Shown here one piece after another: positions 1,315-62,995 of a DNA stretch of 64,000 nt; the first letter of the stretch is position 1; each line of letters opens with the position of its first letter. Source of the DNA: an uncultured Gammaproteobacteria bacterium (GTDB taxonomy: Bacteria; Pseudomonadota; Gammaproteobacteria; JBBQDK01); NCBI GenBank assembly GCA_963778665.1, contig CAVZVG010000005.1, positions 205,805 through 269,804 of the forward strand, in the 5' to 3' direction. The notes below the pieces were generated by a model. That model saw nothing but the letters and a program-made list of their open reading frames with translations. It was not told the DNA's origin and ran no database searches. The position numbers and the translations under genes were made by a program.

Positions 1315-1449
1315 GTAGCCTGGGTTGAGCGACAGCGACAAAACCCGAGGGTTTGTGAAGTTCATAAATGAACTTCACCCGCGGGTGAAGCCATTCGGCT
1401 GTCCAAAATACCTCTGGTGATTTTGTCGCTGCGCTCAACCCAGGCTACA
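1315..1449. repeat. Composite REP/MITE-like palindromic element
   Basis: Outer arms are GTAGCCTGGGTTGAGCG...CGCTCAACCCAGGCTAC; an inner palindrome GTGAAGTTCAT-AAATGAACTTCAC sits between them. It lies in the ubiT/ubiV convergent intergenic space. The same outer arm recurs at ~10.35, 20.65, 20.78 and 63.0 kb, with a diverged arm at 30.95 kb. Confidence 0.7.
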
Positions 1450-1464
1450 TTGCTGAAAGCTGTC

Positions 1465-8263: not shown

Positions 8264-8716
8264 ACGAAAAACCGGGGACTGGAAAACGTATTGTCCAAAA
8301 TTGAACAGCAACAATTGAATGATGAATTTGGCAATTGGTTGAAAATGTTTGGTTACCTGGAATAACGCAGCTTAGCAGTGCGTAGTGAGCAGGGGTTGAA
8401 TCGATTTGCAGCTGGACAGGCACTTTGCATTCTCCCCAAAAAAGGCGAATGCCATTTAAACTGTCAGTCGACAGCTCGAGAAGGGCGCATAGCAATCATT
8501 AAAAAAATAGCTCAAGCCGGCGCAAAAACACGCGCGGCTTAGCATTGCTTTACGAATTACCGATTATGGGGTCACGAATGTCAGATAATATCGGTTCACG
8601 ACTGGCAAGTTATGGCCGGATTCGGCCAATGAGAATCCCGATTTGCACAGAGAATCCATGTCCGATATTGAGTGGATTTAGCATAAAGTGACAACGGTCT
8701 CAGGATCTATCAAAGA

Positions 8717-9733
8717 TCAACAAATCCGCGGCAGCGGATCATCTTCCAGTTCTTCGAGGAGACGCTGGCCGCCGAGTTCTGTCTCCAACACCACGTGCGC
8801 GCGACCGGTCTGCAGCGTGCCGATGATGGCTGCCTCCGCGCATGGCGTCAGCGTTTGCAGCGCTGCCAGCGCGGCCGTCGCATGCGCGGCATCGACCACG
8901 GCCAGCACCCGGCCTTCGCAGGCGAGGTACAGCGGGTCGTAGCCGAGCATCTCGCAGACCGAGCGCACCGGATCGCGCACCGGAATCGCGGCGCCGTCGA
9001 GATGCACGCCGAGCTGGGTGGCGCGACAGATTTCATTGGCCACGGTGGCCAGACCGCCACGGGTCGGATCGCGCATGAAGCGCAGGCCAGGCACGGTCAG
9101 CAAGGCCTGCGCGATCGGCAGCACACTGGCGGCATCCGATTGCAGATCACCGCGCAAACCGAACTGCTCGCGCGCCAGCATCACCGCCGTGCCGTGATCG
9201 CCCACCGGTCCGCTGATCAGCAGCCGGTCGCCGGCCTGAATGGTGGACATGCCGAGCCGCACCGACGTGTTGCGTACACCGATGCCGGTGGTGGCGAAGT
9301 AAACACCGCCGCCCTCCCCGCGCCGCAGCACCTTGGTATCGCCCGCGACAATCTGCACTCCGGATTCGCGCGCGGCGCGCGCCATGCTGATCACGATGCG
9401 CTCCAGCAGCGCGACCTCCAGACCTTCCTCGATGAATGCGTTCAAGGTGAGATAGCGCGGGATCGCGCCGGAGACCGCCAGGTCATTCACCGTGCCGTGC
9501 ACCGCCAGACTGCCGATGTCGCCGCCGGGAAACTCCAGCGGCTGCACGGTGAAGCCATCGGTGGTCACGACCATTTCGCCGGCGTCCGCCCAGGGTACCG
9601 TGGCCGCGTCGACGTCGGTCGACAACAGGGGATTGGCCAGATGACGCGCGAACAACTCTTCGATCAGCTCGCGCATGAAGCGTCCGCCGTTGCCATGGGC
9701 CAGTGAGATATGGGTATCCTGCATGTTCGTCAT
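8717..9733 (-). CDS. hypE: [NiFe] hydrogenase maturation protein HypE (carbamoyl dehydratase)
   Basis: MTNMQDTHISLAHGNGG.. N-terminus and C-terminal ..PRIC are HypE hallmarks; about 338 aa. Confidence 0.85.
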   Translation of the reverse strand: MTNMQDTHISLAHGNGGRFMRELIEELFARHLANPLLSTDVDAATVPWADAGEMVVTTDGFTVQPLEFPGGDIGSLAVHGTVNDLAVSGAIPRYLTLNAFIEEGLEVALLERIVISMARAARESGVQIVAGDTKVLRRGEGGGVYFATTGIGVRNTSVRLGMSTIQAGDRLLISGPVGDHGTAVMLAREQFGLRGDLQSDAASVLPIAQALLTVPGLRFMRDPTRGGLATVANEICRATQLGVHLDGAAIPVRDPVRSVCEMLGYDPLYLACEGRVLAVVDAAHATAALAALQTLTPCAEAAIIGTLQTGRAHVVLETELGGQRLLEELEDDPLPRIC

Positions 9734-9925
9734 GAGTCGTCCTGAGTCGATGTCCTGTCGACAGTTTACACGGAATCGCCGCATTCACAGCCCGGTTCAT
9801 CGCTGGTCACGACGGAATTTCCTGATATGATGCGCGGGGCCGGAATTCATGCGGTCTTGCAATCACGGCAGCCGTTAACGGCACGACCGTTTCCGGATAA
9901 CGACGATAATATTTGGAGAATCGCC

Positions 9926-10303
9926 ATGGCGAAAAAGATGCTCATCATGATGACCAGCGGCCCCGATACGCCGACCCGCCTCGCCACACCCTTTCATCAG
10001 GCCATGACCGCCACCGCGCTGGATGCCGAAGAAGTGGTGGTGGTATTCACCATGGAAGGCACCCGGCTGCTGAAAAAAGGCGTGGCCGAGAATGTCTTCG
10101 CCAAGCAGGGTTCCGGTCACAGCGTGCTCGAAGCGATACAGACCTGCAAGGAGTGCGGCATCAAATTCTACGTCTGCCCGTCCTCGCTGGAAATGCACGA
10201 CCTGACGCTCGACGACTGCATTCCGGAACTGGATGGCGGCATGGGTGCCGCCGGCTATGCGGCGATGGGCATGCAGGATGATGTGGTGGTGTTCTGTTAT
10301 TGA
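9926..10303 (+). CDS. DsrE/DsrF-like sulfur-relay / peroxiredoxin-like family protein
   Basis: 125 aa from MAKKMLIMMTSGPDTPTRLATPFHQA..; conserved Cys in ..KECGIKFYVCPSS... RBS GGAGA 7 nt upstream. Divergent from hypE. Confidence 0.6.
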   Translation: MAKKMLIMMTSGPDTPTRLATPFHQAMTATALDAEEVVVVFTMEGTRLLKKGVAENVFAKQGSGHSVLEAIQTCKECGIKFYVCPSSLEMHDLTLDDCIPELDGGMGAAGYAAMGMQDDVVVFCY

Positions 10304-10320
10304 GCACCGAGATGTATAGC

Positions 10321-10404
10321 GCTTACTCAAGCCCTTACTCAAGAATGTAGCCTGGGTTGAGCGCAGTGAAACCCGGGTTTCGCTATCGCTCAACCCAGGC
10401 TACA
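10321..10404. repeat. REP/MITE-like element, family A, full copy
   Basis: CTCAAGCCCTTACTCAAGAATGTAGCCTGGGTTGAGCGCAGTGAAACCCGGGTTTCGCTATCGCTCAACCCAGGCTAC, about 95% identical to 20761-20836. It lies between the convergent dsrE-like and pseudouridine-synthase genes and overlaps the synthase's last codons. Confidence 0.7.
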
Positions 10405-11169
10405 TAGGCCCCGCACCTCATCTGCCGTCAGCTCGCGCGTCTGCCCCTTGGGCAATTCGCCCAGCAGCACCGGTCCGATGGCAACGCGCAGCAGCCGCAA
10501 CACCGGTCTGTCGACGCTCGCCAGCATGCGCCGGATCTGGCGGTTTCTGCCTTCCTCCAGCGTGATCTCCAACCAGCAGTTCTTCGTACCGTGACGCAGC
10601 ATGGTCACGCCGGCCTGGCGGGTGACCACGCCATCCTCCAGGCGCACACCGGCACGCAGTTGTTCGAGCAGAGTTTCATCGGCCTGTCCGCCGATCTGCA
10701 CGTGATAGACCTTGGCGACATGCGTATCGGGATCGAGAATACGCTGCGCCCAGCGCGTATCGTTGGTAAACAGCAGCAGGCCCTCACTGGCCTTGTCCAA
10801 ACGTCCGACCGGCGCGAGCCACTGATCCTGCACATCCGTCAGACACTCGTAGACGGTGCCGCGTCCCTGTTCATCGCGCGCGGTCGTCACCAGTCCGCGC
10901 GGTTTGTTGAGCACCAGATAGCGTTTCCGCACGGCAGCGACCGACTGGCCGTCGACAGCGATCTTATCGTTCGACATGTCGACACGCTGATCGGGATTGC
11001 GCACCGACACACCATTCACGGCAACCCGCCCCGCCACGATCCAGGTCGCGGCGACCGTACGCGAAGCCAGGCCCGTCTTGGAAAGCGCCCTGGCCAGACT
11101 CACGGCAGCCTCACGCCGCGGCGCGACCGCCTGCCTGTTACTGCGTTCCGATGTGATTTTGCGCGACAT
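10390..11169 (-). CDS. Pseudouridine synthase, RsuA/RluB/RluE family, with an N-terminal S4 domain
   Basis: 259 aa. S4 domain LASRTVAATWIVAGRVAVNG. Catalytic region ..YLVLNKPRGLVTT..GRLDKASEGLLLFTND.. with the Asp in RLD. Confidence 0.8.
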   Translation of the reverse strand: MSRKITSERSNRQAVAPRREAAVSLARALSKTGLASRTVAATWIVAGRVAVNGVSVRNPDQRVDMSNDKIAVDGQSVAAVRKRYLVLNKPRGLVTTARDEQGRGTVYECLTDVQDQWLAPVGRLDKASEGLLLFTNDTRWAQRILDPDTHVAKVYHVQIGGQADETLLEQLRAGVRLEDGVVTRQAGVTMLRHGTKNCWLEITLEEGRNRQIRRMLASVDRPVLRLLRVAIGPVLLGELPKGQTRELTADEVRGLCSLG

Positions 11170-11215
11170 GCGGCAACCCCGGGTAGACTCGGACAGCGGC
11201 GAAGACCGGCTTCAG

Positions 11216-11242
11216 AAAAAAAAGGCGCGCCGAAGCGCGCCT
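11216..11242 (-). terminator. Rho-independent terminator on the minus strand (AAGGCGCGC-TTCG-GCGCGCCTT then T8)
   Basis: GC hairpin followed by a U-run when read on the minus strand, downstream of the degraded gene at 11.3-13.6 kb. Confidence 0.5.
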
Positions 11243-11279
11243 TGGTGGAGCTATGTTAAAAATTACTGAATGACACCAT

Positions 11280-13563
11280 GGATGACCTTAGGTGCATCGG
11301 TGACAGTGGGTTGATGCCGAGGTAATCGACATCGGTAGAGTCGCTCGGGTCGTGCAGATCGGCAGCGGAAGGCAGCGTGAGCGTGTGATGGGTTGCGAAG
11401 GCTCGTCGTAGCGCGCATGCCACCTTGCCAAACGCAGTTCCTGATCAAGCGCCTTGACGATGAGCGGTGTGCTGGTGCCCGGCAAGCTCATGGTGGCGCC
11501 GTCGGGGATGGAGAACTCGGGCACATAGCGCGCACCGGGGATGCCGCAATCCGCTGGGACTGTTGTCTGTCGGATCCACGCAATAGCCCCCGGATGCCGT
11601 TCAGATTACCGAAGCCGTTGAACTGCAGCTGGATGGTCTTGCCCGCCCAGCTGCCGTAAGCCGCGCCCGCTGGGCACGGTGTAAGCAACGGTTCTCCGGC
11701 GGATCGAACTGCACCACGCTGCTGTCGCTGGTCTTGGTCAACCACAAGGACTGGTTCCACTGGTTGGGACCGGTTTGCCAGGTATAGTAGACAGTAGGAT
11801 TGCCGGGTTCACATACGGCTCCCGCCATTGGGGCAACCAGTGGTCGGAAGTGCCGTATCGAACAGTCTGCCGCTCATTGGATCACCATTCTGATACATGG
11901 CCGGTGAACAGTGCCGGTATCAGTGACATACCGCTAAGGCAGTACTGTTTTGCTTTAGACCACCGCTGTCGAAGCTGTATGTCACCGAAACGGTGCCTGA
12001 ATTCCACTGGGTCGCGGGGTCGCAGTGGTTATCGCTATTGATTACCGAATGGTGAGTTGCTGCCAGTGAAAGCCGTCAAGCGATGAAGCGGTGGGGCAAT
12101 TACTCAAGCAATACAGTGCCGTGGGAGCATTGGCATGTCCGGGAATAACGTCCGACTGAGTATAAGTAATTAGACAGCGTCAGTACCGGCATGCGCCGAT
12201 CCGGTGGGCGGAATATTGATGTTACCGCCAAAGGAATCGGACCAGCCGGAAATCGGCGAATAGTCGAATGCCACCGCTATTCACGGTCGCCACCGGGCTG
12301 ATCGACGTTCAGCACACAGACCATTGTTCCCGCAGGTTTGGGTGCCAATAACAACGAACTGGCTATGGCTGGTGGTTGTCCCATTGCATCTGCCAGTTAC
12401 CTGAAACCTGTCACGACGGAATCACTGGTCTTACCAGTGAGGTCACCCCAGAAGGAAAAGGGGATACCGTCCATTGCAGCAAGCGTCTGTTGAGTTCTGC
12501 GTCCACTTGGTCAGCTTGCCGCTGCTCTTAGAGAGGGTATAGGTGCTGGTATTACCGGGACGCTGATCGGTAATGGCCACGCCGGACAAGGGCCGTCGGC
12601 AAAGCTATTCAGATCCAGCCCCTGGAAATTGACGCCCCAATAACTGGCATAACCGCAATAGGTACTGCCGTTGTAGCTAGCCTGAACCGGAAAGCCGGGA
12701 TGGGCCTGATCCACGCGGGTGCCGTCGTTGGCATTGTAGATGCCGTAACGCCATACCGATTTCGAGGCAGCGGCCTTGGAGCGGTCGAAGCAGACATCGT
12801 TGGTGCCGTCGTTACGTCGAAACACACCGGCGGGGAAACTCGCCTCGCTGGAGTCATAGGCGAAGTTGAACGTCTGCGACCGGAGGTTCATGGTGTTTTG
12901 ATCCAGCGTATTCATGATCCCCGAAGCGGCGCTGGTGGAAGTCGCCGTCATGGCGAGCGAATTTTGGCTCGAATTAGCACCGGTCTCCAGATAGCTGACA
13001 TCCGCCCCGTTGGCGTCTATGAAGCCGTTGAACATGGTGGTCGGTGAACACCGGAGGATCTTGCCGATGTAGTCCAAACGAAACTGGCCGTAGGGAGGCG
13101 CATCGGTCGGCGACTGGATCGCGGTGGCATGAACATAGATATCGATTGGGTTGCCCCTCCTCCGTCATGGACATCCATATCTTGCCGATCATGGGATCGC
13201 TATTACTGGCGCGCGTCGACATCCACCACCGCGTTCATATAATCGGGAGCGGCGGTGGCGCCGGAGGAACCGCCGAGTGGAATTGCTGCGCACTCGATTG
13301 GCTCTTGCTGTCGCACTTGTTCTTGTCGACGAGGGCGATGTAGGCACCTTTGTTAACCATATCCGCCGGCTTCATGGCATCCATGATGCACAGCACCATA
13401 TTGAGGCTGGAAATGCCGTCCGACGTGGCGTCCTGCACATAAGAATTCTGGGGATCACGACATAAGGCGAATCGGAGGGCAATACCGCCCAAGTGGTGAG
13501 CGGCGTGGCACCGATCATCGCCAGAAAAAGTACCGACATGAGTTTCAGTGACTTTGAGTTCAT
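11280..13563 (-). pseudogene. Heavily degraded gene for a large secreted protein; ancestral function unknown
   Basis: A signal peptide MNSKSLKLMSVLFLAMIGATPLTTWA at ~13563 is followed by 2.3 kb with no frame open for more than 190 codons. Protein-like segments (..YNGSTYCGYASYWGVNFQGLDLNSF..) sit in at least four frames. GC is intermediate. Confidence 0.45.
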
Positions 13564-14080
13564 GGCTGAATCCTGATTAGTTAGCGGTGACACAGAAACC
13601 GAAGCCGTTGTAGACACTCGCGGCTATCTCGTCGCATTGCCACTCGAGCTGGGCACCGCCACCACCGCCACCACAGGCGGTGAGCGCAAGCAAGACAAGC
13701 AACAGACACTGTTACTTTCAGAAATTTCATGACTGACCTCCATATAGCCAGCGGAGAAAGCCCGGGGCGATTGAAGTCGAGTAAACGAATCTCGAGAGAG
13801 AGAGGGGCGGTCGTGACGTGTATGCGCGTTCGGACCAGATCCTGCTCGTCCCGCTGTTAGCGGCAAAACATTGTCCTCACTTTAGGACCGCGAAAGAGAG
13901 AGGCGCATCGGACCTGGCATATCTGTGATCAATTCCTCAGCAAAAGCCTGCAACTACAGACCAGAATCACTGCATCTCAACCGTCCAGACACAGCCGGTA
14001 ATGACCACAGAGGGTGTTATGGCCGAGACCAGATCTAAACAGAGGACGAGTACGAATGGCCGACAGTCAGGAGCCAGCAC

Positions 14081-14205
14081 ATGAGCGCCGCAATGCGCTA
14101 TTCCATGCAATTATCGCTGGGCGGCGAAGGCGCCTGGGTACGCGGCGAGGAAGCCATCATGGGCACACAGCATCTGGGTCGAGCTGTGGGCGGAGGATCT
14201 GCAGT
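14081..14205 (+). pseudogene. Duplicated 5' fragment of apbE (about 42 codons, 1-nt indel); gene remnant
   Basis: ATGAGCGCCGCAATGCGCTATTCCATGCAATTATCGCTGGGCGGCGAAGGCGCCTGGGTACGCGGCGAGGAAGCCATCATGGGCAC.. is about 85% identical to apbE nt 19655-19775. It has its own AGGAG RBS, and the similarity ends at ~14205. Confidence 0.6.
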
Positions 14206-14285
14206 GTGTGGCGGTTGACAGGAAACGGAATCAGCGACACGCCTGATGTTTATTCAGCGGGCGTGTGCGATACACGACAAATACA

Positions 14286-14756
14286 TCACTGAGCTGCATC
14301 ATGTTCAGGGCTATCACCCGACGGATGGCCCCTCTCATCTCCTTCTTTATCACCACCCTTATACCCAGGGTTGTCTTTTCCGGAATTGCCCCTGAACTGC
14401 GGCCTGTCTTTGCTGGAATCACCGCCCATGTGGTCGATATCGCTTCTCGACCCATGACCATACCCGGAGCCGAATACCGTGCTCTCGAGGGTTTTGCTGC
14501 CGCCGCCATACATTGACGGGCCTTGATGGCCTCGCTCGCTGATGATGTAGCTTTCGCTGCCCCGGTCATGCGCCCCTTTCCTGCCGTGCTCGCCTGCGCC
14601 ATGGCCGCCGCCAATCTCGTCACGACTGCCGTTCTCCGCGTACGCCGGCATGATCAGATTGAAACCGTCCGGGTGATTCGCTACAGCGGACTCCAGCAGG
14701 GCATAAATTCCGACAGCGAAGGGTGTAGTAATAAGTACTTTCAGATATCTCGACAT
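14286..14756 (-). CDS. Secreted His/Gly-rich low-complexity protein; possible periplasmic metal-binding protein
   Basis: 156 aa from MSRYLKVLITTPFAVGIYALLESAVA (signal peptide) with GGGAGA RBS. The mature part has GHG/HG/GYGHG motifs (..GGGHGAGEHGRKGAHDRGSE..GYGHGSRSDIDHMGGD..). Confidence 0.5.
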   Translation of the reverse strand: MSRYLKVLITTPFAVGIYALLESAVANHPDGFNLIMPAYAENGSRDEIGGGHGAGEHGRKGAHDRGSESYIISERGHQGPSMYGGGSKTLESTVFGSGYGHGSRSDIDHMGGDSSKDRPQFRGNSGKDNPGYKGGDKEGDERGHPSGDSPEHDAAQ

Positions 14757-15003
14757 GACATTTCTCCCTGTCCTATCAAGATAAAAATATAGACCATGGC
14801 ACCGTAAATTGTTGATGAACTGTACAGCCACTTTTTTCAACAGCTTGTCGAATGACACGCAAAGTAACGGTACAAGTATCTGAGGAAGCGCCAGATATGC
14901 CGGCCGGTCCCGCCCAACGAAGATACAGCAAAGCACCGATCGCGACCTGACTGGATTCCCGTTTTCGAGGGCACGACTCGTTCAGAGGATAGTTACCGCA
15001 ATA

Positions 15004-15036
15004 AAAAAGGGCGCGCTTGCTGCAAGCGCGCCCTTC
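15004..15036 (-). terminator. Rho-independent terminator on the minus strand (GGGCGCGCTTGCAGCAAGCGCGCCC then T6)
   Basis: Perfect GC stem followed by a U-run when read on the minus strand, 20 nt after the stop of the 15056-16186 gene. Confidence 0.55.
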
Positions 15037-15055
15037 CCGGCCCAACGATCAACGC

Positions 15056-16186
15056 TTAACGGACAGCGTTGTCGTGGACATACTCGATGACACGCAGGGC
15101 ATCATTGGCTGCCGCGGCGAAATCATCGGCACCGGCACTGGTTTGCACGGTTGGATCAACCCAGTCGGAACCGCTGAATACGGTGTCGTAAAGATTGACC
15201 GTTGCCTGATTGTAGGTAACACCGTCCGACTGCAATACCAGCACGGTGGCGGTAGCATCCTTGTAGGTGGCTTCGCGGTCATAATCGAAGGTGGCGAAGT
15301 CATAATATGACGTCGGCACTCCATTCGTGACCGTGTTCACTCCGATGAAGTTATTGAGATACACCACCGTGTCGACATTGATGGTGCTGGTCTTGTCGGC
15401 CGCCGCCGCCAGCAGGGATGCCGCCGACAGATTGGCCGGCAACAGCGCCTTGACGTCGGCCGGCAAGGTATCGGTCATGACCGCCTTGTACAGCGCCAGG
15501 TTTTCCAGCGGCGAGTCGATGGTAGAGCCGTCCACGACCACGCGTCCCGCCGCATCGAGCGTGATGGCGGCATCCGTGGTCTTGATCTTGGTGAGCGCCT
15601 CATCCAGCGAGTGCGTCAACACTTTCGACGGTGCCCGCGCGACGCTCAGACGACTGAAGGTCACTTCCTGTGTCAACGAGGCATCGATGGGCGCACCCTC
15701 CTCGTCCAAGGGAACAAGATTGCCCTCGGCATCGATCGGCTGCACATACTTTCCATCCTTGAGAATCGGCTCGCCATTGGCGTCACGCAGGATGACCCAC
15801 AGATCGCCGTACAGATCGCCTTTCGTGGTGCCGCTGCCTGCAGGCTGACCACCGCCGCCGGTCTTGCCACCTTTAACCCCCGCCCAGATGGGGCGGTCGG
15901 AATCGCTTTCATCACCCGGTCCGCCCTGACCCTTCATCATGACGTCCTTCTGTCCTTTGCCGCTGCCATGCGTGGTGCCATGGTCACCCGTGGTCCCTTT
16001 TTGCATATTGCCGGAGCCCTTGTTACCACTGCCGCCCGAACCGTCTTCGGCTGCCTGCGCCGAGGCGATCAGATCGAAACTGCCGGTCGAAAAATGCGCT
16101 GTAAACTCGGGCGCCACCAATGTCGCCACCGCTGCAAACCCACCCACCACGACGATACGTTTCAGATTGTATTTAACCTTGCTCAT
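15056..16186 (-). CDS. Secreted hypothetical protein with a Gly/Ser/Thr-rich linker
   Basis: ATG at 16186 (MSKVKYNLKRIVVVGGFAAVATLVAPEFTA) with GAGGTGA RBS 6 nt upstream. The ORF-track extension begins at a TTG. GC-rich codon usage and a terminator downstream. Confidence 0.6.
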   Translation of the reverse strand: MSKVKYNLKRIVVVGGFAAVATLVAPEFTAHFSTGSFDLIASAQAAEDGSGGSGNKGSGNMQKGTTGDHGTTHGSGKGQKDVMMKGQGGPGDESDSDRPIWAGVKGGKTGGGGQPAGSGTTKGDLYGDLWVILRDANGEPILKDGKYVQPIDAEGNLVPLDEEGAPIDASLTQEVTFSRLSVARAPSKVLTHSLDEALTKIKTTDAAITLDAAGRVVVDGSTIDSPLENLALYKAVMTDTLPADVKALLPANLSAASLLAAAADKTSTINVDTVVYLNNFIGVNTVTNGVPTSYYDFATFDYDREATYKDATATVLVLQSDGVTYNQATVNLYDTVFSGSDWVDPTVQTSAGADDFAAAANDALRVIEYVHDNAVR

Positions 16187-16358
16187 GACACTCACCTCAT
16201 TCTTCAATTACATGATTCTTGCGTTGCAAGAATAATATCTTTTTGTACTTGAACATTTGTTGACGAGCATCAAGCACAATGCCTTTTCACACTTGCAAGC
16301 AGGCAAATAAAGCACTCTCGTGTGGCGCGAGAGGACTGTTACCATCCATGATTCGAAA

Positions 16359-19032
16359 CTAGAAACGCATGCCCAATCCCAGGCTAAACAGGTTTTCCCT
16401 GTTCTTGAAGTTGGACGTATCGCTGTTGGCCTGCGTCGTGGTGAAGCCATACGCGTTGTAGTCGGTCACCGAGTAATCCAGACGAACGAACAGATTGCGA
16501 CTCAGCGGCACTTCCGCACCGAGCCCCACGCGCATTCCGTTGAGCGTGTCATCGCGATCCACCCAGGTGGCGCTATTGTTGCCCTTGTTGTAGATGGTAT
16601 TGAACCGGGTACGTACCGGCCCGCCGCGCACATAGAGCAGGGAGCCATTCTCCAATACATAGCCCAGACGCAAGCTGGCACCGTAACTGTTCTTCAGCTC
16701 GACGCTGAAAGTCCCGTCCACCTGAACCGCCGCCGGCGTCGCGATCATTGCTCCAATCCACACGCCCCGAACCGGCAGCCAATTCCAGACCCGCATAAAA
16801 GCGCTTGAAGGTCGTGCCGTAACCGGTAAAGAAGCCCCACACACTCCCCATCTTGCCGAAATCCCCGGTATAGGGACAGTTGCTGCAGCCTGAACCACCG
16901 CTATCGTTTTGGATGGCGTCAAGCCTGGTGGTGGCGGCAGCCTGGCCCACCTGCGCACCTGCATAGAAACCATCGACACTGGAGGCATCCACTTGCGGTG
17001 TGTTCACACCATGACCACCGAAGTGCCAGCCCAGCCCCAAGCTGAACATGCCTGCATTGCTGTCCAGCTGGTCGACCGTGGTGCCGGTGTCGCCCTGCGA
17101 TGGTGCGCTGAATTCACCGTAGTGGATGAAACTGTAATCCATGCGCACGAACAGATGGCTGCTGGCCGGAATGTCCACACCTACGCCAAAACGTCTGCCA
17201 GTCAGACTCTGATCCTGATCGAAGGCGCCGGTGGCGGCGAATTTATTTTCCGTGTCGTAGCTGTGGAAGTCGGTATGCGCCAGGCCATACTGTCCGAACA
17301 GCAAGCCGCCCGGCAACGCATAACCCAGGCGCAAGCTCAAACCGTAGCCGGCATTCTCTGCCAGCGACATGGTGCGGGCGTCGGCTTTGTCTTTCGTATG
17401 GAACCAGCCTGCCGCGCTGTTCTGCGATTCCAGTTCCAGACCGTAATACCAGCGGTTCCACATCCGTCCATAGCCGGCGAACAATCCATAGCTGTTGCCG
17501 CCTGCCTTGCCCATGTCCATTTCATCGGTGCCGCCGGAGGTTCGACTGCTGAACACTTCCGTCGTCAGAACCTCGACGCCGGTCCGGGCGCCGACATAGA
17601 AACCCGAGTAATCCGCCAGCGGCGCAGCAGTAAACTCATCGGAACCGGATCGAAAAATCGCGGGTAACACACGCCCGGGCCTGTAGCCCACACTGAACAG
17701 GATCTGGTTGTCGGCATAATCGAATCTGCTTTGGCTGCCATTGCCGTTGCTCAGCGCATCGGTGGCATTCGAATTGCGCATCGTGTGACGATAATCGGCC
17801 CCCAGAAATACATCCCTGCGTACGTAATAGCGTGCACCGAAGCCGGCATCGAGAAAATTCTCGGTGCGGTCGATGCCCTGGAATTGGCTGCGCGACAGTC
17901 CAAGACGGGCATTCAGGCTGAGATCCCGACTCAGGTCCTTGTCGACGCGCGCACCGACCGTGGTATCGAGATAGCTGGATGCACCACTGATGGTAGTTTC
18001 GTTCAAGGTCCGGTCGATGAAGGCCGTGACATAGGTGGTGGGCGCAATGGCGAATTTGGCATCCGCACCGAAATAGGGCTTGCTGACATCCCGCATGGCA
18101 ATGTCGGAATAATCCTGCAGGAGGTGACCGACATAGGCCTCGGCTTTGTTGCCGCCGCCGTAATCGGCGCTCACGCCTGTCGCAATTCGATAGCCATCGG
18201 AATTGCGGCCGCTCGTACCCAGGTCATATCGACGGGTATCGGTCGCCGCCTGCATAAACACATCGTACTTGGGTGCGACTTTGAAGCTGATGCGCCCGCC
18301 TGCCGAATAAAGCTTGCGGTCGCGGTCGTCCATCCTGATGACGCCGCCCCCGCTGGCCGGTACGTTATCGAAATTCAGATGTTCAAAGGTGGTGCCGACC
18401 CGCAAAGCCACTCTGTCAACCTGATGAAAAACGCCCAGGTGAGCCTTGGTCTCCCAGAACAAGGTCGGCTCCAAACCCACGCGCGCGGGATCTTCCAGAC
18501 TGGAACGATCCTCGTGGTTGCGGCTGATACCGGCCCCGGCATAGACATTGGTCCGTTGTGAAATATCGTAGCGTCCCTGGGACTCGAACCAGTAATCCGC
18601 CACATTTTCCGTGGTCCGGGATTGGTAGCGGTCGACATCGGCGCCGGTCCAGAAGTTCAGGCTGTGACGCGTCCAATCGGATTTGACGGCCAGTGTCGGG
18701 GACATGACGGTGACCCAATCCCTGACTTCATCGGTACGGGCGGCATAGATATTGTCGTCATACAGTTCCGACAGGGTGAATTCGGGAATGAACCGGAACG
18801 TGCCCACCGAATAACCCTCTTTACCGGGTTTCGCTTCAGGCCGGGGACTCGATTTCGCCGGGTCCACTGCAAGAGCGGGGAGCGGCGACGGGGCGGGATG
18901 CTGACTGCCGCGTGATGATTGCTCACCGTCTCCTTGCGTCTGCACCGGCGTGATAGCCGGCTGTTCCGCAAGTGTCCACAACGGGTAAATGATAGCCAGA
19001 CCAACAACAACTGCCAGGTACCGCTTAAACAC
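16359..19032 (-). CDS. Large outer-membrane protein (N-terminal ~480-aa domain plus two OmpA-like beta-barrel domains), interrupted by an apparent frameshift near 16730
   Basis: GTG start (MFKRYLAVVVGLAIIYPLWTLA) with AGGAGA RBS 6 nt upstream. Two OMP_b-brl-like repeats; the second continues in the frame of ORF 16359..16988 and ends ..NLFSLGLGMRF (OMP C-terminal Phe). The shift lies in a GCCGGCGGCGG run. Confidence 0.6.
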
Positions 19033-19654
19033 AACATCTCTCCTCACCTGAAACGCAGGCACAAAAAAGCCCGGACCGGGACGAATCCTGTGTCCGGGCG
19101 AATCTCACTTTGCTTTCACTAGCGTTTCAACTAGGAAAACGACTTATTATAACCAAACTTCACACAGCGAACGTGACCGCCCCCGCAGGTCGGACGTGAC
19201 CGACCACTCAACTCAAGAGATGCGTTTTGAACGTAAAAATGCACTTCGATGAATAATAAACATCATATCAATGTTCTATTGAACAATGAAGACCTGGACT
19301 AAAATCCTGAGTGACACTGACAAAAAAGTTCTGTCGATGATGATAAATGCCAGACTGCCAAAGTTGAATTTGACATCAGCTGCAACACACAAACATCTGA
19401 CCTCATCAGGCAATGCGAAGTGTTTTTTTCGCTGGCAAACCGGCCGGGGGCACACCGGACATGAACCATGAGTCGACTATACCCTGCAAATGCACTGTGA
19501 CCTGATTCGCAGTCCACTCGCGTATACCCGACTAGAATCATCCACAATAACCGAATCCGTCCGGCTGCCGTCGGGAATGCTGCGAGAGGCGCCATGAACG
19601 GGAATGGAGTTGCACAATGCAGTACCCATACAGCAAAAAACCGGGGGTCGCCTT

Positions 19655-20614
19655 ATGAGCGCCGCGATGCACTATTCCATGAAACTATCGCTGGGCAGCG
19701 AAGGCGCCTGGGTGCGCGGCGAGGAGGCCATCATGGGCACGCGGATCTGGGTCGAGCTGTGGGCGGATGACCGGCAGGACGGGGCCGCGGCCGTGTCCGC
19801 CGTGATGGACGAGATGCACCACATCAACCATTTGATGAGCCCGTTTCGACCCGACAGCGAGTTGTCGCGCATCAACACGCTGGCAGCGCAGGCGCCGGTG
19901 GCGGTCGGCGATGAATTGTTTCATGTCATCGAGCGCAGCCTGGAATTCTCGCGCCTGACGGACGGCGTCTTCGATGTCACCTTCTCCAGCGTCGGCAATC
20001 TGTACGACTACCGCAACGGCGTGCACCCGACCGAAAAACAGATCGAGGATGCATTACCGGGCGTGAATTACCGTCATGTCATTCTGAATCACGCGGCACA
20101 TACGGTGCGCTTCGAACGGCCCGGCATGCGCATCGATCTCGGCGGCATCGCCAAGGGCTATGCGGTCGAAAAGGCCGCCGCCATGCTGCACCGACGCGGC
20201 ATCCGCCACGCCCTGGTCACGGCGGGCGGCGACAGTCGGGTGCTCGGCGATCACCGCGGCCGCCCCTGGATGGTCGGTATCCGCGACCCGCGCAACAGCG
20301 AACGCGAAGTGGCGATGCTGCCGCTCAGCGATACCGCCATATCGACCTCCGGTGATTATGAACGCTTCTTCGAAGCGGACGGCGTACGCCATCACCACAT
20401 CCTCGATCCCAAGACCGGCAAATCCCCCGGCGAAATTCACAGCGTGACGATCATCGGACCGGACGGCATGACGACCGAAGGCATCTCGACCAGCGTCTTC
20501 ATTATGGGTGTGCGCCGCGGCATGGCACTGGTGAATTCATTGCCGGGCATCGCGGCAGTGATTGTCGACAAGGACGGCATGCTGCATTACAGCAAGGCCT
20601 TACAGCCTGCCTAG
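19655..20614 (+). CDS. apbE: FAD:protein FMN transferase ApbE; no signal peptide evident
   Basis: ..EEAIMGTRIWVELW..; DLGGIAKGYAVE; ISTSGDYERFFEADGVRHHHILDPKTG motifs. Start taken at MSAAM because the duplicated fragment begins at this ATG; the ORF track starts 17 codons earlier. Confidence 0.8.
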   Translation: MSAAMHYSMKLSLGSEGAWVRGEEAIMGTRIWVELWADDRQDGAAAVSAVMDEMHHINHLMSPFRPDSELSRINTLAAQAPVAVGDELFHVIERSLEFSRLTDGVFDVTFSSVGNLYDYRNGVHPTEKQIEDALPGVNYRHVILNHAAHTVRFERPGMRIDLGGIAKGYAVEKAAAMLHRRGIRHALVTAGGDSRVLGDHRGRPWMVGIRDPRNSEREVAMLPLSDTAISTSGDYERFFEADGVRHHHILDPKTGKSPGEIHSVTIIGPDGMTTEGISTSVFIMGVRRGMALVNSLPGIAAVIVDKDGMLHYSKALQPA

Positions 20615-20621
20615 AGACAAG

Positions 20622-20715
20622 CCTGGATTGATTGTCGGCCGCAGAGGCAGCAGTGAAACCCGGGTTTCGCTATCGCTCAACCCAGGCTACGTCCTGGATT
20701 GATTGTCGGCCGCAG
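20622..20715. repeat. Half-copy of REP family A (48 bp) flanked by a perfect 23-bp direct repeat CCTGGATTGATTGTCGGCCGCAG
   Basis: Direct repeat at 20622-20644 and 20693-20715 brackets CAGTGAAACCCGGGTTTCGCTATCGCTCAACCCAGGCTAC, 8 nt after the apbE stop. Confidence 0.6.
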
Positions 20716-20760
20716 GGTAAGTTCATTTTATCAATCGCACAAAATAGAATGGCACTGACT

Positions 20761-20836
20761 CAAGCCCTTACCCAAGAATGTAGCCTGGGTTGAACGCAGT
20801 GAAACCCGGGTTTCGCTATCGCTCAACCCAGGCTAC
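20761..20836. repeat. REP/MITE-like element, family A, full copy
   Basis: Near-identical to 10321-10404. Lies in the apbE / DUF3570 convergent intergenic region, 7 nt from the DUF3570 stop. Confidence 0.7.
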
Positions 20837-20842
20837 GTCATC

Positions 20843-21997
20843 CTAAAACCATATCGACAGATACACCTGCACGACATCGGCCGAGAATCCATACAGCGGT
20901 TCCTGACCCGGCGTGCCGCCTTGCGTGACATCGCGGAAATCCCGATAGGAAAACAGCATGTGGTTGTAGGCCATGTTCAAGGTGCTCTTGTTGATGGCCT
21001 TCCATCCAGGGCGCGTGAAGTCGTAACTCAAGCCCATGCCGAAACTCTGCGAACTGAAACTGCTGAGTTCCTTGTCGCGGGCCAGGTAGTTCTGCGCATC
21101 CAGGTACGGGAACAGATCGCTGTAGAAATCGGCCTTGCCCTGGGTGTAATACCGGTAACTGACATCGAGGATCCATTTGTCATGCAGCGGTTGTTTGTAG
21201 CCGATCTCCGCGGTGTGTGCCTTGACGCCCCAGGTGTCGGTATAGTAACGGTACTGTCCCTGCAGCCTGGCGCGATACGGCAGGTAATAGCGCGCGGTGA
21301 CAGCCAGGGCATTGCTGGTGTGGGTCTTGGGGTAGCGTTCCGGCTCGTAGCTGTAACCCTTGCCGCTGCTTGAATCGAGATAGCGCACCGATCGATACGG
21401 GTTATTGAGAAAGCCCTGATCGGTGACCAGTTCGTAACTCGTATCTATCAGCAGATCCTTGGTCAGCACCTGCGACAGTCCCAGCGTGTAGTTCTGGCGA
21501 TCGAGACTGGCGGAGAACGACGGCTGGCCGTTCTTGCCGACGGTGTCCCAACCCCGCGAGTAGCCCATCGATACCGTGGTCATATCGCCGAACAGGCTCT
21601 GGGTCAGGTCGAGGTTGGCGGTGTTGGCTTTGTAATCGCTTTCCGTACTGTTGGTGTAGCCCATGTTGAACGTGGTTTTGGCGTGCAGGTAGCCGAGACT
21701 GATATTTCCCTGGGTGCGCTGTTCGGAATAGGGGCTGGCGGTCGATACCACATCGATGGACGCACTGCTGACCGTGTCGACATAGTAGTTGCCGCTCACA
21801 TCGGCATTCTGCCCGATATGCTTCAGCACCAGCACCGATGGACCGCTGACGGTTACCCCGCCGCCGGAGTAGGAATGATACAAGGCATCGGCACGCTGAT
21901 CCGGCAGCACATCCGCGCCGGCCGGCAGGTGTTCGAGCAACAGACCGACGGCGATCAGCGGCCAGGTCGATTTAATTGCAGCCACAACCACCTCCAT
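20843..21997 (-). CDS. DUF3570-family outer-membrane beta-barrel protein
   Basis: C-terminal ..VQVYLSIWF (aromatic OMP terminus) and alternating beta-strand pattern. The Met at 21997 gives signal peptide MEVVVAAIKSTWPLIAVGLLLEHLPAGA; the ORF track allows an ATG at 22042. Partner of DUF4266, TlpA and ApbE. Confidence 0.6.
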   Translation of the reverse strand: MEVVVAAIKSTWPLIAVGLLLEHLPAGADVLPDQRADALYHSYSGGGVTVSGPSVLVLKHIGQNADVSGNYYVDTVSSASIDVVSTASPYSEQRTQGNISLGYLHAKTTFNMGYTNSTESDYKANTANLDLTQSLFGDMTTVSMGYSRGWDTVGKNGQPSFSASLDRQNYTLGLSQVLTKDLLIDTSYELVTDQGFLNNPYRSVRYLDSSSGKGYSYEPERYPKTHTSNALAVTARYYLPYRARLQGQYRYYTDTWGVKAHTAEIGYKQPLHDKWILDVSYRYYTQGKADFYSDLFPYLDAQNYLARDKELSSFSSQSFGMGLSYDFTRPGWKAINKSTLNMAYNHMLFSYRDFRDVTQGGTPGQEPLYGFSADVVQVYLSIWF

Positions 21998-22196
21998 GCC
22001 CGCCGTCGGCGCCGCGCGCGCCTTCACGCGCTTCGTGCACATGATTGAGATAAGCGGTCGACACCGGATTCGGGTCGGCGCTCATGATCGGGTCCGCCAG
22101 GTGGGCGCGCTCATATGGCTTGACCCACGGCTGGATATTGCCGCAGGCCGTGAGCATCAGGCCGAGCAATATCACCAAATGTGTTCGCAATGGCAT
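21972..22196 (-). CDS. DUF4266-family small lipoprotein
   Basis: MPLRTHLVILLGLMLTAC lipobox; ..PWVKPYERAHLADPIMS..; C-terminal GGGCGCN is typical of DUF4266. ATG sits 3 nt after the tlpA stop. Confidence 0.65.
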   Translation of the reverse strand: MPLRTHLVILLGLMLTACGNIQPWVKPYERAHLADPIMSADPNPVSTAYLNHVHEAREGARGADGGHGGGCGCN

Positions 22197-22198
22197 GA

Positions 22199-22705
22199 TC
22201 ACTCCCGCAACAGTTCGCTGACCTGCTGTTGATAGGTCTGCTCATAACCCGGCATATAACCCTGATGCAGATAGCGCACCTTGCCGTTGCGATCCACCAG
22301 CACGGTACTGGGCATGGCTTCGAGATTGTAGAGTTTGCTGACGACGCTCTGCGGATCGAACAGCACCGGAAAATGCACCGGATGCTCTTTCAGCAATGCC
22401 TGCGCCGCAGTCGTATCCTGCTCGACGTTGACACCGAGAATGGTGAAGCCGAGCTTCTGATAGCGCTGATAAAGCTCATCGAGCAACGGCATCTCCTGAC
22501 GACAAGGCCCGCACCAGGAGGCCCAGAAGTTGACCAGCACCACCTGACCGCGCAACTCGCTGAGCTTGAGATTCTCGCCACTCAGGCTCTTGAGTGTGAA
22601 ATCGGGTGCCGGTGGCGACGGCACAGAAGCCATCGCGCTGCTTACACACGCGGCCAGCAACACTGCACGCAAGGTGCGCGGAAGGAATCGAAAGCGTCTA
22701 TTCAT
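22199..22705 (-). CDS. TlpA-family periplasmic thiol:disulfide oxidoreductase
   Basis: WASWCGPC active site, signal peptide MNRRFRFLPRTLRAVLLAACVSSAMA, GGAG RBS. Confidence 0.8.
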   Translation of the reverse strand: MNRRFRFLPRTLRAVLLAACVSSAMASVPSPPAPDFTLKSLSGENLKLSELRGQVVLVNFWASWCGPCRQEMPLLDELYQRYQKLGFTILGVNVEQDTTAAQALLKEHPVHFPVLFDPQSVVSKLYNLEAMPSTVLVDRNGKVRYLHQGYMPGYEQTYQQQVSELLRE

Positions 22706-22754
22706 AATATTCTCCACATAGAGCACATGACAAAATGGATCTTGCGCTGCACTA

Positions 22755-22780
22755 TCACCCCCTCTCCCGGAGGGAGAGGG
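22755..22780. repeat. Family B GC-rich hairpin repeat (CCCTCTCCC-GGA-GGGAGAGGG)
   Basis: Same core as at 32635-32754 and 38570-38608. Lies in the tlpA / OMP-gene intergenic space. Confidence 0.55.
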
Positions 22781-22818
22781 AACTTACATTTTGAGCGACA
22801 TCCAAACGAGACCTACAC

Positions 22819-23478
22819 TCAGAAAAACACCGTCATGCCGCCGGTGAATTCCAGATTGTGCGTGGTCTTGCTGGTGCCGAGCAGATCGCTGCTGAAGACG
22901 TGATCGCGTACGTCCGCGTGCAAGGCCAGCCAGTCCGTGGCGAGCAGGCGGTAACCGGTGCCGAAGTTCACCGTGAAGCGGCTGTCGTTGGCGAATTTGG
23001 TGCTGCCGACACCGGCGATCACGTAGAGTGCCGAATTGAAGGCGTGCTTGCTGCCGATGAAGGCCTCGCCCGGCAGCAGGTTGTACCCCAGGGAGATGTT
23101 GTAATAGCTGTAGACACGTTCGGCATCGGTAAGCACACGGGCCGATCCGCTGAGCGTTTCGTAACTGGTCTTGCCGACGGTGCTGCGGCCGTAGGCGCCT
23201 TCGGCGAAGAAGTCCTCGGTGATGTGATAGGCACCGCGCAGGCCGTAGACCGGGTTCGAGCCGAAGTCTTCGACGCTGAGCACGCCGGCATAGGCACCCA
23301 GCTCGAAGTCGGCACTGTCGATATGCGGCGTCGTGATCGTACGCCGCGAAATACCGGGGTCGATGATCGGCTCATCCTGATCATCCGCGGCGAATGTCGC
23401 CGCGCTGCCGAGCGTCACGCAGGCCAGCAGCGCCGCGCCGAATCGCTTCAGAAAAATACCGTGCAGCCAATTTTCCAT
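22819..23478 (-). CDS. Outer-membrane beta-barrel protein (OmpA-like 8-strand barrel family)
   Basis: Signal peptide MENWLHGIFLKRFGAALLACVTLGSAATFA; C-terminal ..EFTGGMTVFF. Overlaps the upstream gene's stop by 31 nt. Confidence 0.6.
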   Translation of the reverse strand: MENWLHGIFLKRFGAALLACVTLGSAATFAADDQDEPIIDPGISRRTITTPHIDSADFELGAYAGVLSVEDFGSNPVYGLRGAYHITEDFFAEGAYGRSTVGKTSYETLSGSARVLTDAERVYSYYNISLGYNLLPGEAFIGSKHAFNSALYVIAGVGSTKFANDSRFTVNFGTGYRLLATDWLALHADVRDHVFSSDLLGTSKTTHNLEFTGGMTVFF

Positions 23479-24185
23479 TCGTTGATCCCCTGATTGCTGT
23501 CTCTGTTTTGATAGACGACATAATTGTTGTACTCGGCGCGCAGCAACAGGCGGCGCGCCAGATAGGTACGCACGCCGACACCGACGTGAGTGGTGCCGTC
23601 CGAGCGGTTCTGACTCTGTACCAGCGTGACCTGCGGGTCGGTTCGTATCACACCGCTGCCCAGCGCGAAGAACGGTGACACGCGCCATTCCGGGAACGGC
23701 TGCGCCACCAGGTTCACATTCAGCATCAGACTATCGGAATATGTCCCCAACACCTGCGACAGAGACAATTCCGTCGCCAGTGTCGGCGTGAAGGCATAAC
23801 CGCCGTAGGCAGTGATCACATGCGCGCCACCGAAACTGCCGCCCAGCACGCCCAGTTCCCAGCGCCGCCGGTTGTAGTCGTCACGGCTCGCATCCGCGAG
23901 GCGCAAGGGCTGACCGGCGGCAAGTTGCGTCTGCTCGATCTGCTTGCGTGTCACCCAACCCTGCTTGCCGCGTGCGGTGCGCACCTTGAACCAGTCGGTC
24001 TTGCGCAGCAGTATCTCTATCCATTCACCCCGCTCCGCCACATAGAAAATCGGATAGCCGCGTCCCGGTCCGGTATGCAGTTCGACATATGGTGCACGCA
24101 CCTCGACACGCAACGCTTCCTTGCCCTGCGCGAGCGGCACAACCAACCAGGCCAGCAACAGCCAGATGAGTACAGGCTTGCGCAC
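23448..24185 (-). CDS. SH3-domain plus outer-membrane beta-barrel fusion protein
   Basis: Bacterial SH3-like segment (ALRVEVRAPYVELHTGPGRGYPIFYVAERGEWIEILLRKTDWFKVRTARGKQGWV) then a barrel ending ..KIGCTVFF. A GTG start overlapping the upstream TAG (TAGTG) gives signal peptide MRKPVLIWLLLAWLVVPLAQG; the alternative ATG is at 24242. Confidence 0.6.
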   Translation of the reverse strand: MRKPVLIWLLLAWLVVPLAQGKEALRVEVRAPYVELHTGPGRGYPIFYVAERGEWIEILLRKTDWFKVRTARGKQGWVTRKQIEQTQLAAGQPLRLADASRDDYNRRRWELGVLGGSFGGAHVITAYGGYAFTPTLATELSLSQVLGTYSDSLMLNVNLVAQPFPEWRVSPFFALGSGVIRTDPQVTLVQSQNRSDGTTHVGVGVRTYLARRLLLRAEYNNYVVYQNRDSNQGINEWKIGCTVFF

Positions 24186-62990: not shown

Positions 62991-62995
62991 TCAAT

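Follow-up and report, generated by a model that had tools for sequence, protein, structure and literature searches.

A truncated apbE relic in the variable rlu–apbE slot is probably a scar of genome rearrangement

Results

Gene content of the rlu–apbE region

The window, by which we mean the whole 64,000-nt stretch of DNA that was analysed, carries an rlu-type pseudouridine synthase gene and an apbE gene in divergent orientation, spaced 8.3 kb apart (11215-19486). Between them lie the frame-broken geneX, then a relic of the apbE 5’ region, and then a cassette of three genes (Table 1). The apbE gene itself is intact, its product matching Pfam ApbE (PF02424) over profile positions 1-266 of 266 (E = 1e-83, 281 bits against a cut-off of 25.6), with 92% amino-acid identity to the orthologues of L001 and L002, the two closest genomes, whose flanks are about 86% identical to ours.

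Table 1. Features of the rlu–apbE region, in window coordinates
Feature	Coordinates	Strand	Basis or remark
rlu-type pseudouridine synthase gene, conserved left border of the slot	10390..11169	-	Pfam PseudoU_synth_2 and S4
GC-rich hairpin with T-run, terminator-like	11216..11241	-	sequence inspection; between geneX and rlu
geneX, secreted-protein gene of ~750 codons	11263..13563	-	three-frame translation; signal peptide MNSKSLKLMSVLFLAMIGATPLTTWA
Relic of the apbE upstream promoter/leader module	13922..14080	+	nhmmer profile and alignment
Copy A, relic of apbE codons 1-41	14081..14205	+	88.8% identical to 19655-19779; truncated at about 14205
Cassette 3’ flank, hairpin CACGCC...GGCGTG	14206..14285	-	sequence inspection; left end is the novel junction with the relic
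Cassette gene 3, His/Gly-rich secreted protein, 156 aa	14286..14756	-	tblastn
Cassette gene 2, 376 aa, uncharacterised family	15056..16186	-	disordered Gly-rich N-terminal half, folded C-terminal domain
Cassette gene 1, outer-membrane beta-barrel, ~900 aa, 2.7 kb	16359..19062	-	Pfam BBP2_2 (E = 1e-81) and OMP_b-brl
AT-richer stretch upstream of the OMP gene, where the lineage-specific segment ends on the right	19063..19486	.	GC 0.47-0.51
Live apbE upstream module (copy B)	19487..19654	+	blastn, shared with L001 and L002; nhmmer 19481-19653, E = 3e-49
Intact apbE (FAD:protein FMN transferase family)	19655..20614	+	Pfam ApbE; first 125 nt are copy B

GeneX is broken over at least four frames, with the signal peptide at its start, and tblastn with its homologues from L089 and L090 follows the frame shifts along 13510-11266; neither Pfam nor NCBIfam gave a match. 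The hairpin beyond its 3’ end looks like a terminator, and would putatively be that of geneX.

The three minus-strand genes of the cassette agree with the initial annotation, which had placed genes for a His/Gly-rich secreted protein, a Gly-rich secreted protein and a 2.7-kb outer-membrane protein (OMP) between two copies of the apbE 5’ end. The OMP gene has one frameshift between 16737 and 16706, where tblastn of the L081 and L084 OMPs switches frame (16711/16706), and two neighbouring proteins of L081 and L084, 148 and 149 aa long, span 14756-14289 at 36% identity. As a whole, the cassette is collinear with an operon in L081-L087, consisting of an OMP gene, a small ORF, a 367-aa gene and a 148-aa gene and conserved in Methylotenera-like bacteria, where a histidine kinase / response regulator pair comes next, whereas the cassette of the window is cut just after its last gene. 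Given such a collinear operon elsewhere, the suggestion that the enclosed genes may be an acquired, added cassette is a reasonable one. Codon usage, which had been proposed as a check, points to nothing unusual: GC3 of the cassette genes (0.61-0.77) falls largely within the window range of 0.74 +/- 0.07, and composition, in terms of codon usage and GC3, carries no signal of recent foreign origin. It follows that the event was not recent, or that the donor was of similar composition.

A variable slot between rlu and apbE

On the rlu side, blastn homology stops at 11188 for L001 and at 11214 for L002, resuming at 19481 and 19492. In L002 the slot is a 274-nt spacer, with rlu adjoining apbE, and in L001 it holds a 2.6-kb GGDEF/EAL gene. 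The fillings of the window, L001 and L002 have no detectable mutual similarity, and in all three homology restarts at the same point upstream of apbE, where the conserved apbE promoter module, starting about 160-170 nt upstream of the ATG, forms the right bound of the slot. The divergent rlu–apbE intergenic region is a variable slot in this clade, in which lineages differ in their minus-strand cargo, and geneX is the first cargo of the slot in the window. The lineage-specific segment, initially taken to be 5.4 kb, in fact measures 8.3 kb by blastn against L001 and L002 and includes the geneX region (11.2-13.9 kb). Nor is apbE directly preceded by the flank at 14 kb in these relatives, as had been proposed for comparison, its neighbour being rlu in L002 and the GGDEF/EAL gene in L001. 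Furthermore, the enclosed genes are absent from L001, L002 and 160 other apbE loci, and none of these 160 loci has a second apbE fragment.

Pfam and NCBIfam scans of the ORFs at 11.2-19.5 kb revealed no integrase, transposase or excisionase gene, a tRNA gene was likewise absent, and no inverted repeats were found at 14206/19486 or 11215/19486, the apbE fragment being the sole flanking direct repeat. Insertion of a transposon or IS was rejected, there being no transposase domain and no terminal inverted repeats.

A relic of the apbE promoter and 5’ end

Copies A and B are direct repeats in identical orientation, and MAFFT aligns them with 111 of 125 positions identical (88.8%). The repeat is therefore real, somewhat closer than the ~85% first reported, and clear of the two findings named beforehand as fatal to it, namely similarity below 60% or restriction to low-complexity sequence, which this is not. 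An ungapped repeat search finds 86 nt at 92% between the copies, and the L001 apbE as blastn query against the window also matches 14077-14204 (E = 4e-40). The longest identical run is the 23-nt block ATCTGGGTCGAGCTGTGGGCGGA at the 3’ end of both copies, with blocks of 11-16 nt elsewhere along the repeat, so that it does not stand out. Copy A has its own ribosome-binding site, as had been noted, with AGGAG 8 nt upstream of the ATG. It also has the reported 1-nt indel, a single extra A near 14169 relative to copy B; the indel is present in the window and absent from the second assembly that bears the relic (L088, see below). Since the extra A has no counterpart there, it is either late or a sequencing error.

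The translation of copy A keeps the clade-specific N-terminus MSAAM.YSM.LSLG.EGAWVRGEEAIMGT, and gives no Pfam match, covering only 41 of 319 codons and ending before most of the ApbE domain. As such, copy A is a gene fragment with homology at the DNA level only, which cannot encode the enzyme.

The homology had been thought limited to the first ~125 nt of apbE. Instead, it extends past the ATG for another ~160 nt upstream (13922-14080 against about 19494-19654), weaker but significant. This part is diverged, yet it keeps the conserved blocks TCTGTGA and GAC(C/T)AGAATCA along with the ribosome-binding site. An nhmmer profile restricted to the non-coding sequence that precedes B and its counterparts in L001 and L002 matches 13922-14042 (E = 2.4e-7), the next best match in the window having E = 0.8. 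The relic in total is a 284 bp promoter-plus-5’ module, located 5.4 kb upstream of the working apbE.

The same arrangement occurs in L088, a contig from a separately assembled metagenome whose left flank is 99-100% identical to that of the window. GeneX, the relic and the identical junction between relic and cassette are all present in this contig, which ends 75 nt past that junction. The block 13810-14233 is about 99% identical between the two relic-bearing strains, with 88-94% on both sides of it. The arrangement has persisted, and is common to a second assembled strain.

Copy A as a separate allele

Most differences between copies A and B are synonymous. Comparing copy A with B, L001 and L002 gives pN/pS values of 0.20, 0.24 and 0.17, respectively, with Fisher p-values from 0.004 (for B) down to 2e-5, compared to 0.06-0.20 among the live alleles, all these codon statistics resting on 12-19 substitutions per comparison. 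Its amino-acid changes, at positions 6 and 15, are at positions that also vary among live alleles. Between A and B, the coding part has a Jukes-Cantor distance of 0.12, and the part before the ATG one of 0.77. The latter is thus about six times more diverged, where neutral decay in place would be expected to give an upstream/coding ratio of 2 or less. With differences that are mainly synonymous and an upstream part that has diverged far beyond the coding part, copy A behaves as a fourth functional allele, one kept in working order in a different lineage. We read it, from these substitution patterns, as an allele from a sister lineage that once functioned and is now truncated to its 5’ end, and not as a decayed local duplicate.

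The pS between A and B, 0.26, lies among the values for between-species alleles in the clade (0.15-0.38). From A to L001 and L002, pS is 0.29 and 0.44 over these 41 codons only, similar to the whole-gene values of 0.35 and 0.37, while the first 41 codons of B are nearer to L001 (pS 0.15). What these patterns may say on polarity is a weak hint, coming from 41 codons.

The initial view of the repeat as a recombination footprint that displaced the original apbE 5’ end thus stands in part. A footprint of recombination it is, with the enclosed genes absent from the relatives, but copy A is not a duplicate of the gene’s own 5’ end. The window holds two slot fillings stacked in tandem: geneX, module A and apbE codons 1-41, followed by the cassette, module B and full-length apbE.

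Discussion

How then did one filling come to lie behind the other? We think it reasonably probable that two alternative fillings of this slot were brought together by a pair of crossovers, one homologous and one illegitimate, which left the relic behind. The recombining partners would have been related lineages whose slots carried different cargo, the first crossover being homologous and in the shared flank, and the second illegitimate, connecting position ~+125 of one apbE allele to the cassette 3’ end. What remained of that allele, its promoter and first 41 codons, would be a dead relic, with the other allele still intact. Such a process would be a case of homology-facilitated illegitimate recombination (HFIR), or of an unequal exchange equivalent to it. 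HFIR integrates DNA via one homologous and one illegitimate end (PMC3240628), and has been put forward to explain gene pieces displaced next to newly arriving modules in Rhs and T6SS arrays (PMC5361080). The crossovers are ones that we infer from the anatomy of the locus, where the insert is absent from L001 and L002, its left end is a single novel, out-of-register junction (apbE +125 to the cassette 3’ flank), and its right end runs in register into apbE. B and its flanks are uniformly 85-90% identical to L001 and L002, and no edge of a recombination tract can be seen rightward of the junction. Neither of the parental arrangements (rlu/geneX/intact A-type apbE and rlu/cassette/apbE) was found in genome and metagenome collections, which likewise contained no apbE relatives between 92% and 63% identity.

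Alternatively, a circle with the cassette and a 284-bp apbE promoter/5’ segment could have entered by a single homologous crossover inside that segment, in Campbell fashion, yielding direct repeats. Both copies are of equal extent, about -160 to +125, as this predicts, the longest identical run lies at the repeat 3’ end, and in E. coli incoming DNA that has circularised is known to integrate by single crossovers (PMC3240628). Nonetheless we regard this as unlikely. The left end of the repeat is a natural module border, found also in L001 and L002, which is explained more simply if the cassette already lay upstream of the donor apbE. A homology of ~52% upstream and 89% in the coding part makes a poor RecA substrate, and there are no replicon or mobilisation genes, the 376-aa gene having no plasmid match. 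Anatomically, this explanation differs from the HFIR-type exchange only in the topology of the incoming DNA.

A more far-reaching reading, which we consider quite unlikely, is that the apbE module (about -160 to +125) serves as a reusable homologous anchor, making the slot an integrase-free capture site for secreted and envelope genes; in a weaker variant, the relic would be retained for an antisense promoter into the cassette, or for a 45-53-aa peptide. If the anchor reading were true, new cargo would bring its own copy of the module, older fillings would stack upstream behind relics, and the locus would be the housekeeping-gene counterpart of the Rhs and T6SS displacement arrays.

Very unlikely is a site-specific island that inserted into the apbE 5’ end, brought a replacement 5’ end and later lost its integrase. 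Imperfect direct repeats do flank the insert, the target gene is intact through a substitute end, and the identical block at the repeat end could be a core site. However, the region contains neither an integrase or excisionase gene nor a transposase or tRNA gene, three envelope genes take up the 5.3-kb insert and leave no room for a recombinase, and there are no terminal inverted repeats. Moreover, the same three genes elsewhere form an ordinary chromosomal operon beside a two-component system rather than a mobile element, and the 160 other apbE loci without a second fragment (0/160) speak against such an island too.

As for a local tandem duplication of the apbE 5’ region, followed by entry of the cassette between the two copies and decay of the one upstream, the copies do share genome, orientation and extent, but we hold it to be highly improbable. 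Their differences are mainly synonymous (pN/pS 0.20, p = 0.004), and divergence is about sixfold higher in the non-coding part, against a maximum of about twofold if one copy decayed neutrally. Furthermore, a pS of 0.26 is at the level of species, while flank identity between the two relic-bearing strains is 99-100%.

Finally, a misjoin of two strain haplotypes during metagenome assembly is barely credible, for although the source is apparently a metagenome-assembled contig, single-base frame errors lie nearby (geneX, the OMP gene, the extra A in copy A) and L088 ends shortly after the junction, the join is out of register, from apbE +125 to the 3’ end of an unrelated gene, which is not expected of haplotype collapse, and the separately assembled L088 reproduces it together with the 75 nt beyond.

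Probably the product of an HFIR-type exchange, the relic is a real but ordinary scar of genome rearrangement, and it leaves the current understanding of recombination or of ApbE unchanged. It does offer a small, clean example of a variable slot gaining cargo without mobile-element machinery, dates the event relative to lineage divergence, and illustrates that a single genome can stack two alternative fillings of a slot, drawn from different lineages. Annotators should regard the predicted 45-aa ORF at 14081 as a gene fragment, 11.2-19.5 kb as accessory DNA, and the cassette as part of a widespread, uncharacterised envelope module.

Comparison with known systems

Phage 21 and the e14 element insert in icd and bring a substitute gene end, leaving duplicated gene ends at their attachment sites. 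Like these elements, the apbE locus has imperfect direct repeats of a gene end flanking an insert, with the target gene intact. However, the icd-type elements have an integrase and a defined, identical core, whereas the apbE locus is without an integrase or other mobility gene.

HFIR has been described in transformable Acinetobacter, Pseudomonas stutzeri and Streptococcus pneumoniae, and in E. coli conjugation (PMC3240628). As in its products, DNA has been added beside a homologous anchor, with one homologous and one novel, out-of-register junction, and with neither a recombinase gene nor terminal repeats. Those products were defined experimentally, with known donor and recipient, whereas the apbE locus is known from its sequence anatomy.

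The effector-immunity arrays of Rhs, CDI and T6SS systems (PMC5361080) differ in what is displaced: there, the 3’ ends of toxin genes are moved downstream and the orphan immunity genes stay useful, while here the 5’ end and promoter of a housekeeping flavin transferase are displaced upstream, as one relic with no evident selective value. The likeness lies in the incoming module, which arrives with its own piece of a conserved gene, while the resident piece survives as a truncated orphan with divergence at the level of alleles. Stacked arrays of this kind can afterwards pass from strain to strain through ordinary homologous recombination (PMC5361080), a further point of likeness to the apbE locus.

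An apbE relic that includes the upstream module

The opening 125 nt of the gene starting at 19655 recur, in the same orientation, at 14081-14205, which confirms the repeat reported in the initial annotation. An ungapped repeat search finds 86 nt at 92% identity between the relic (copy A) and the start of the live apbE (copy B), while a gapped alignment gives 111 identical positions out of 125 (88.8%), with one extra A in copy A near 14169. The repeat is not of low complexity, and the orthologous apbE of a relative (L001 which, with L002, is one of the two closest relatives' apbE loci) likewise matches copy A when used as query (E = 4e-40). Copy A carries an AGGAG 8 nt 5’ of its ATG and, past the extra base, runs out of frame until a stop codon, resulting in a 45-aa ORF (P0132).

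While the first ~125 nt of apbE were correctly recognized as repeated, the ATG is not the limit of the relic. An alignment of the regions 5’ of A, of B and of the two closest orthologues revealed blocks in common, and an nhmmer profile built solely from the 175 nt of non-coding sequence that precede B and its counterparts in L001 and L002 matches 13922-14042, immediately 5’ of copy A and in the expected order (E = 2.4e-7, against 0.8 for the second-best match in the 64-kb window). Therefore, the relic is a 284-bp unit (13922-14205) consisting of an apbE upstream module and codons 1-41. From their conservation, the shared upstream blocks have a putative promoter role; a promoter consensus scan around the relic gave no sites. 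Searching both upstream modules against Rfam returned nothing at gathering thresholds and just two chance-level matches at E <= 1; neither module contains an FMN riboswitch or any further known RNA element.

Features of the rlu-apbE region (window coordinates)
Feature	Position	Strand	Remarks
rlu, pseudouridine synthase gene	10390-11169	minus	left neighbour of the slot
Hairpin with T-run	11216-11241		end of geneX
geneX, secreted protein of ~750 aa	13563 down to 11263	minus	clear signal peptide; no family assignment
Cassette	14206-19486	minus	three genes, right of the relic
His/Gly-rich protein, 156 aa	14286-14756	minus	
376-aa protein gene	15056-16186	minus	
Outer-membrane beta-barrel protein (OMP), ~900 aa	16359-19062	minus	Pfam BBP2_2 and OMP_b-brl
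apbE, copy B at its start	19655-20614	+	intact; Pfam ApbE E = 1e-83 over the full profile
DUF3570 protein, TlpA/ResA-like thioredoxin and OMP_myx_plus barrel genes	20843-23688	minus	downstream of apbE

A variable slot between rlu and apbE

Our scan of relatives, with one genome per species, found two close ones, L001 and L002, both Gammaproteobacteria MAGs, in which ApbE is 92% and the flanking DNA ~86% identical to the window. A metagenome scan with ApbE, with a best match of 63% identity, added no close relatives. Exact-sequence look-ups of ApbE and the 376-aa cassette protein, using either start codon, and of P0001 matched no recorded protein. In L001 and L002 it is rlu, and not the 14-kb flank, that adjoins apbE. 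The divergent intergenic slot between the two genes holds just 274 nt up to the apbE upstream module in L002, an 881-aa sensor protein with GGDEF and EAL motifs (read from the translation) in L001, and 8.3 kb (11215-19486) in the window. These fillings have no detectable similarity to one another, and homology picks up again in all three at the same point, ~160-170 nt 5’ of the apbE start. The accessory segment is 8.3 kb long and composite, instead of the 5.4-kb segment initially delimited by the repeat. The cassette and geneX proteins are absent from 80 genome loci around apbE, and none of 160 genome and metagenome apbE loci has a second apbE fragment; the general reading of a recombination scar beside added genes holds.

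A search with the repaired 41-aa relic peptide matched only the relic's own ORF and P0133, which we rejected as a second relic. P0133 is encoded on two short metagenome contigs whose ends (L091 719-765 and L092 601-647) fold back on themselves and repeat the neighbouring apbE sequence in reverse complement, an assembly artefact that creates a false 51-aa truncated ApbE. Such ends call for caution whenever short-read assemblies are searched for gene fragments.

Both halves of the 8.3-kb segment consist of minus-strand cargo followed by a divergent apbE promoter module, the form of the one filling that L001 and L002 each have. The simplest interpretation is that the window stacks two fillings that were alternatives for one slot in two related lineages. 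This would take one homologous crossover in a shared flank, and one illegitimate crossover through which position +125 of one apbE allele was joined to the cassette's 3’ flank. We infer these crossovers from what is observed, namely the layout of the locus, the absence of the segment from relatives and a divergence of the relic like that between alleles. A single crossover with a circular intermediate predicts identical anatomy, and is a rather improbable alternative to such a pair.

The cassette as an envelope module

The 376-aa cassette protein has 884 scored homologues, the nearest 71% identical. Elsewhere, on contigs binned as Methylotenera and others, its gene always lies in the order OMP, small ORF, 367-aa gene, 148-aa His/Gly-rich gene, and a convergent histidine kinase / response regulator pair comes after that operon. 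The module in the window ends right after its last gene and a terminator-like hairpin, exactly at the relic's end. Its OMP gene has a single frameshift between 16737 and 16706, beside GGACGGGAC, which puts its final 115 codons, the closing ...GLGMRF strand among them, into a different frame. The shift reflects either an error of sequencing in the G-run or a real inactivation.

Composition was rejected as a sign of foreign origin. The codon-usage check proposed for the enclosed genes places cassette GC3 (0.61-0.77) and codon-usage distance largely inside the range of the window's other genes (0.74 +/- 0.07), so that this host-like composition gives no signal of recent foreign origin. That an integrase drove the segment in as an island is distinctly unlikely, as the segment has no integrase or other mobility gene, no tRNA gene and no inverted repeats. 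Elsewhere the cassette genes form an ordinary chromosomal operon, and a plasmid search with the 376-aa gene gave no match. As an uncharacterised, widespread envelope module, the cassette may merit more attention than the repeat itself.

The relic as an allele of another lineage

For the comparison of the 41 codons, the single extra base was removed from copy A; this base is absent in L088, a metagenome contig with the same relic. Copies A and B differ by 7 synonymous and 5 non-synonymous changes (pS 0.26, pN 0.05, pN/pS 0.20; Fisher p = 0.004). The pN/pS of A is 0.24 against L001 and 0.17 against L002, and among the three live alleles (B, L001, L002) it ranges from 0.06 to 0.20. Furthermore, two of the five replacements in A relative to B lie at positions 6 and 15, which are also variable among live alleles. 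By Jukes-Cantor distance, A and B are 0.12 apart over the coding sequence and 0.77 apart over the region 5’ of it (83 of 160 positions identical). Since neutral decay after a local duplication allows the upstream distance to be at most ~2 times the coding distance, the observed excess indicates that the divergence mostly preceded truncation. It therefore built up mostly with A in a working apbE, and as such in another lineage. The truncation came late, and the relic is a foreign or sister allele, not the duplicate of the neighbouring apbE that it was first taken for. Local duplication is very unlikely, being contradicted by the mainly synonymous changes and the far larger upstream divergence.

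It may be asked which end is the resident one. The pS of A is 0.29 to L001 and 0.44 to L002, close to what the entire gene gives for B (0.35 and 0.37), whereas the first 41 codons of B are nearer L001 (pS 0.15). This weakly hints that the resident end could be A, and that the cassette may have brought the 5’ end of B with it. Sliding-window identity revealed no recombination tract boundary.

The relic/cassette junction and geneX

L088 (8.4 kb, ENA analysis ERZ25039495), recovered via a geneX fragment, aligns end to end with 5959-14280 of the window and is 99-100% identical over 5959-10358. It contains geneX, the relic and, exactly as in the window, the relic/cassette junction; the contig stops 75 nt past this junction. 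Misassembly of this junction is extremely unlikely, because the join is out of register, which haplotype collapse would not yield, and because L088 shares it.

The geneX reading frame shifts at least four times, and is broken in all four assemblies that have the gene: the window, L088 (~700-3050), and the homologues L089 (9525-11918) and L090 (9389-11626). L088 matches the window at 99-100% identity in the flanks, but across geneX the identity per 100 nt drops to 62-91%, with ~45 small indels. We considered a diversity-generating retroelement and rejected it, as the substitution spectrum between the two has no adenine bias and a template repeat is absent. Either geneX is a strain-variable gene that is swapped by recombination and decaying, or mixed alleles were merged into a poor consensus of long reads. 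As a secreted-protein gene that differs strongly between otherwise near-identical strains and lacks an intact frame in all the assemblies, it may likewise merit more attention than the repeat.

Neighbouring features

A REP/MITE-like intergenic palindrome, GTAGCCTGGGTTGAGCG...CGCTCAACCCAGGCTAC, lies at 1315-1448, 10316-10406, 20650-20693, 20749-20839 and 62994-63036, with copies directly after rlu/DsrE and directly after apbE. Its arms have eight matches, where 0.02 are expected by chance, and the folded element reaches -42 kcal/mol (z = -6.4). The spacer with the post-apbE copies measures ~236 nt in the window, 160 nt in L002 and only ~24 nt in L001, so that at least L001 appears to be without them at this position. 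DUF3570 adjoins apbE in 36 of 80 related genome loci. A second variable segment, at ~5750-8700, is low in GC (0.44 at 8.0-8.7 kb) and has no blastn match in L002; its L088 counterpart has genes called Sulfotransfer_1 and Lcl_C.

Relation to known systems

The locus is a fresh instance of a well-known kind of event. The proposed pair of a homologous and an illegitimate crossover would agree with homology-facilitated illegitimate recombination (PMC3240628). The relic found here also has a parallel in the displacement model that has been proposed to account for orphan pieces of T6SS and Rhs arrays (PMC5361080).
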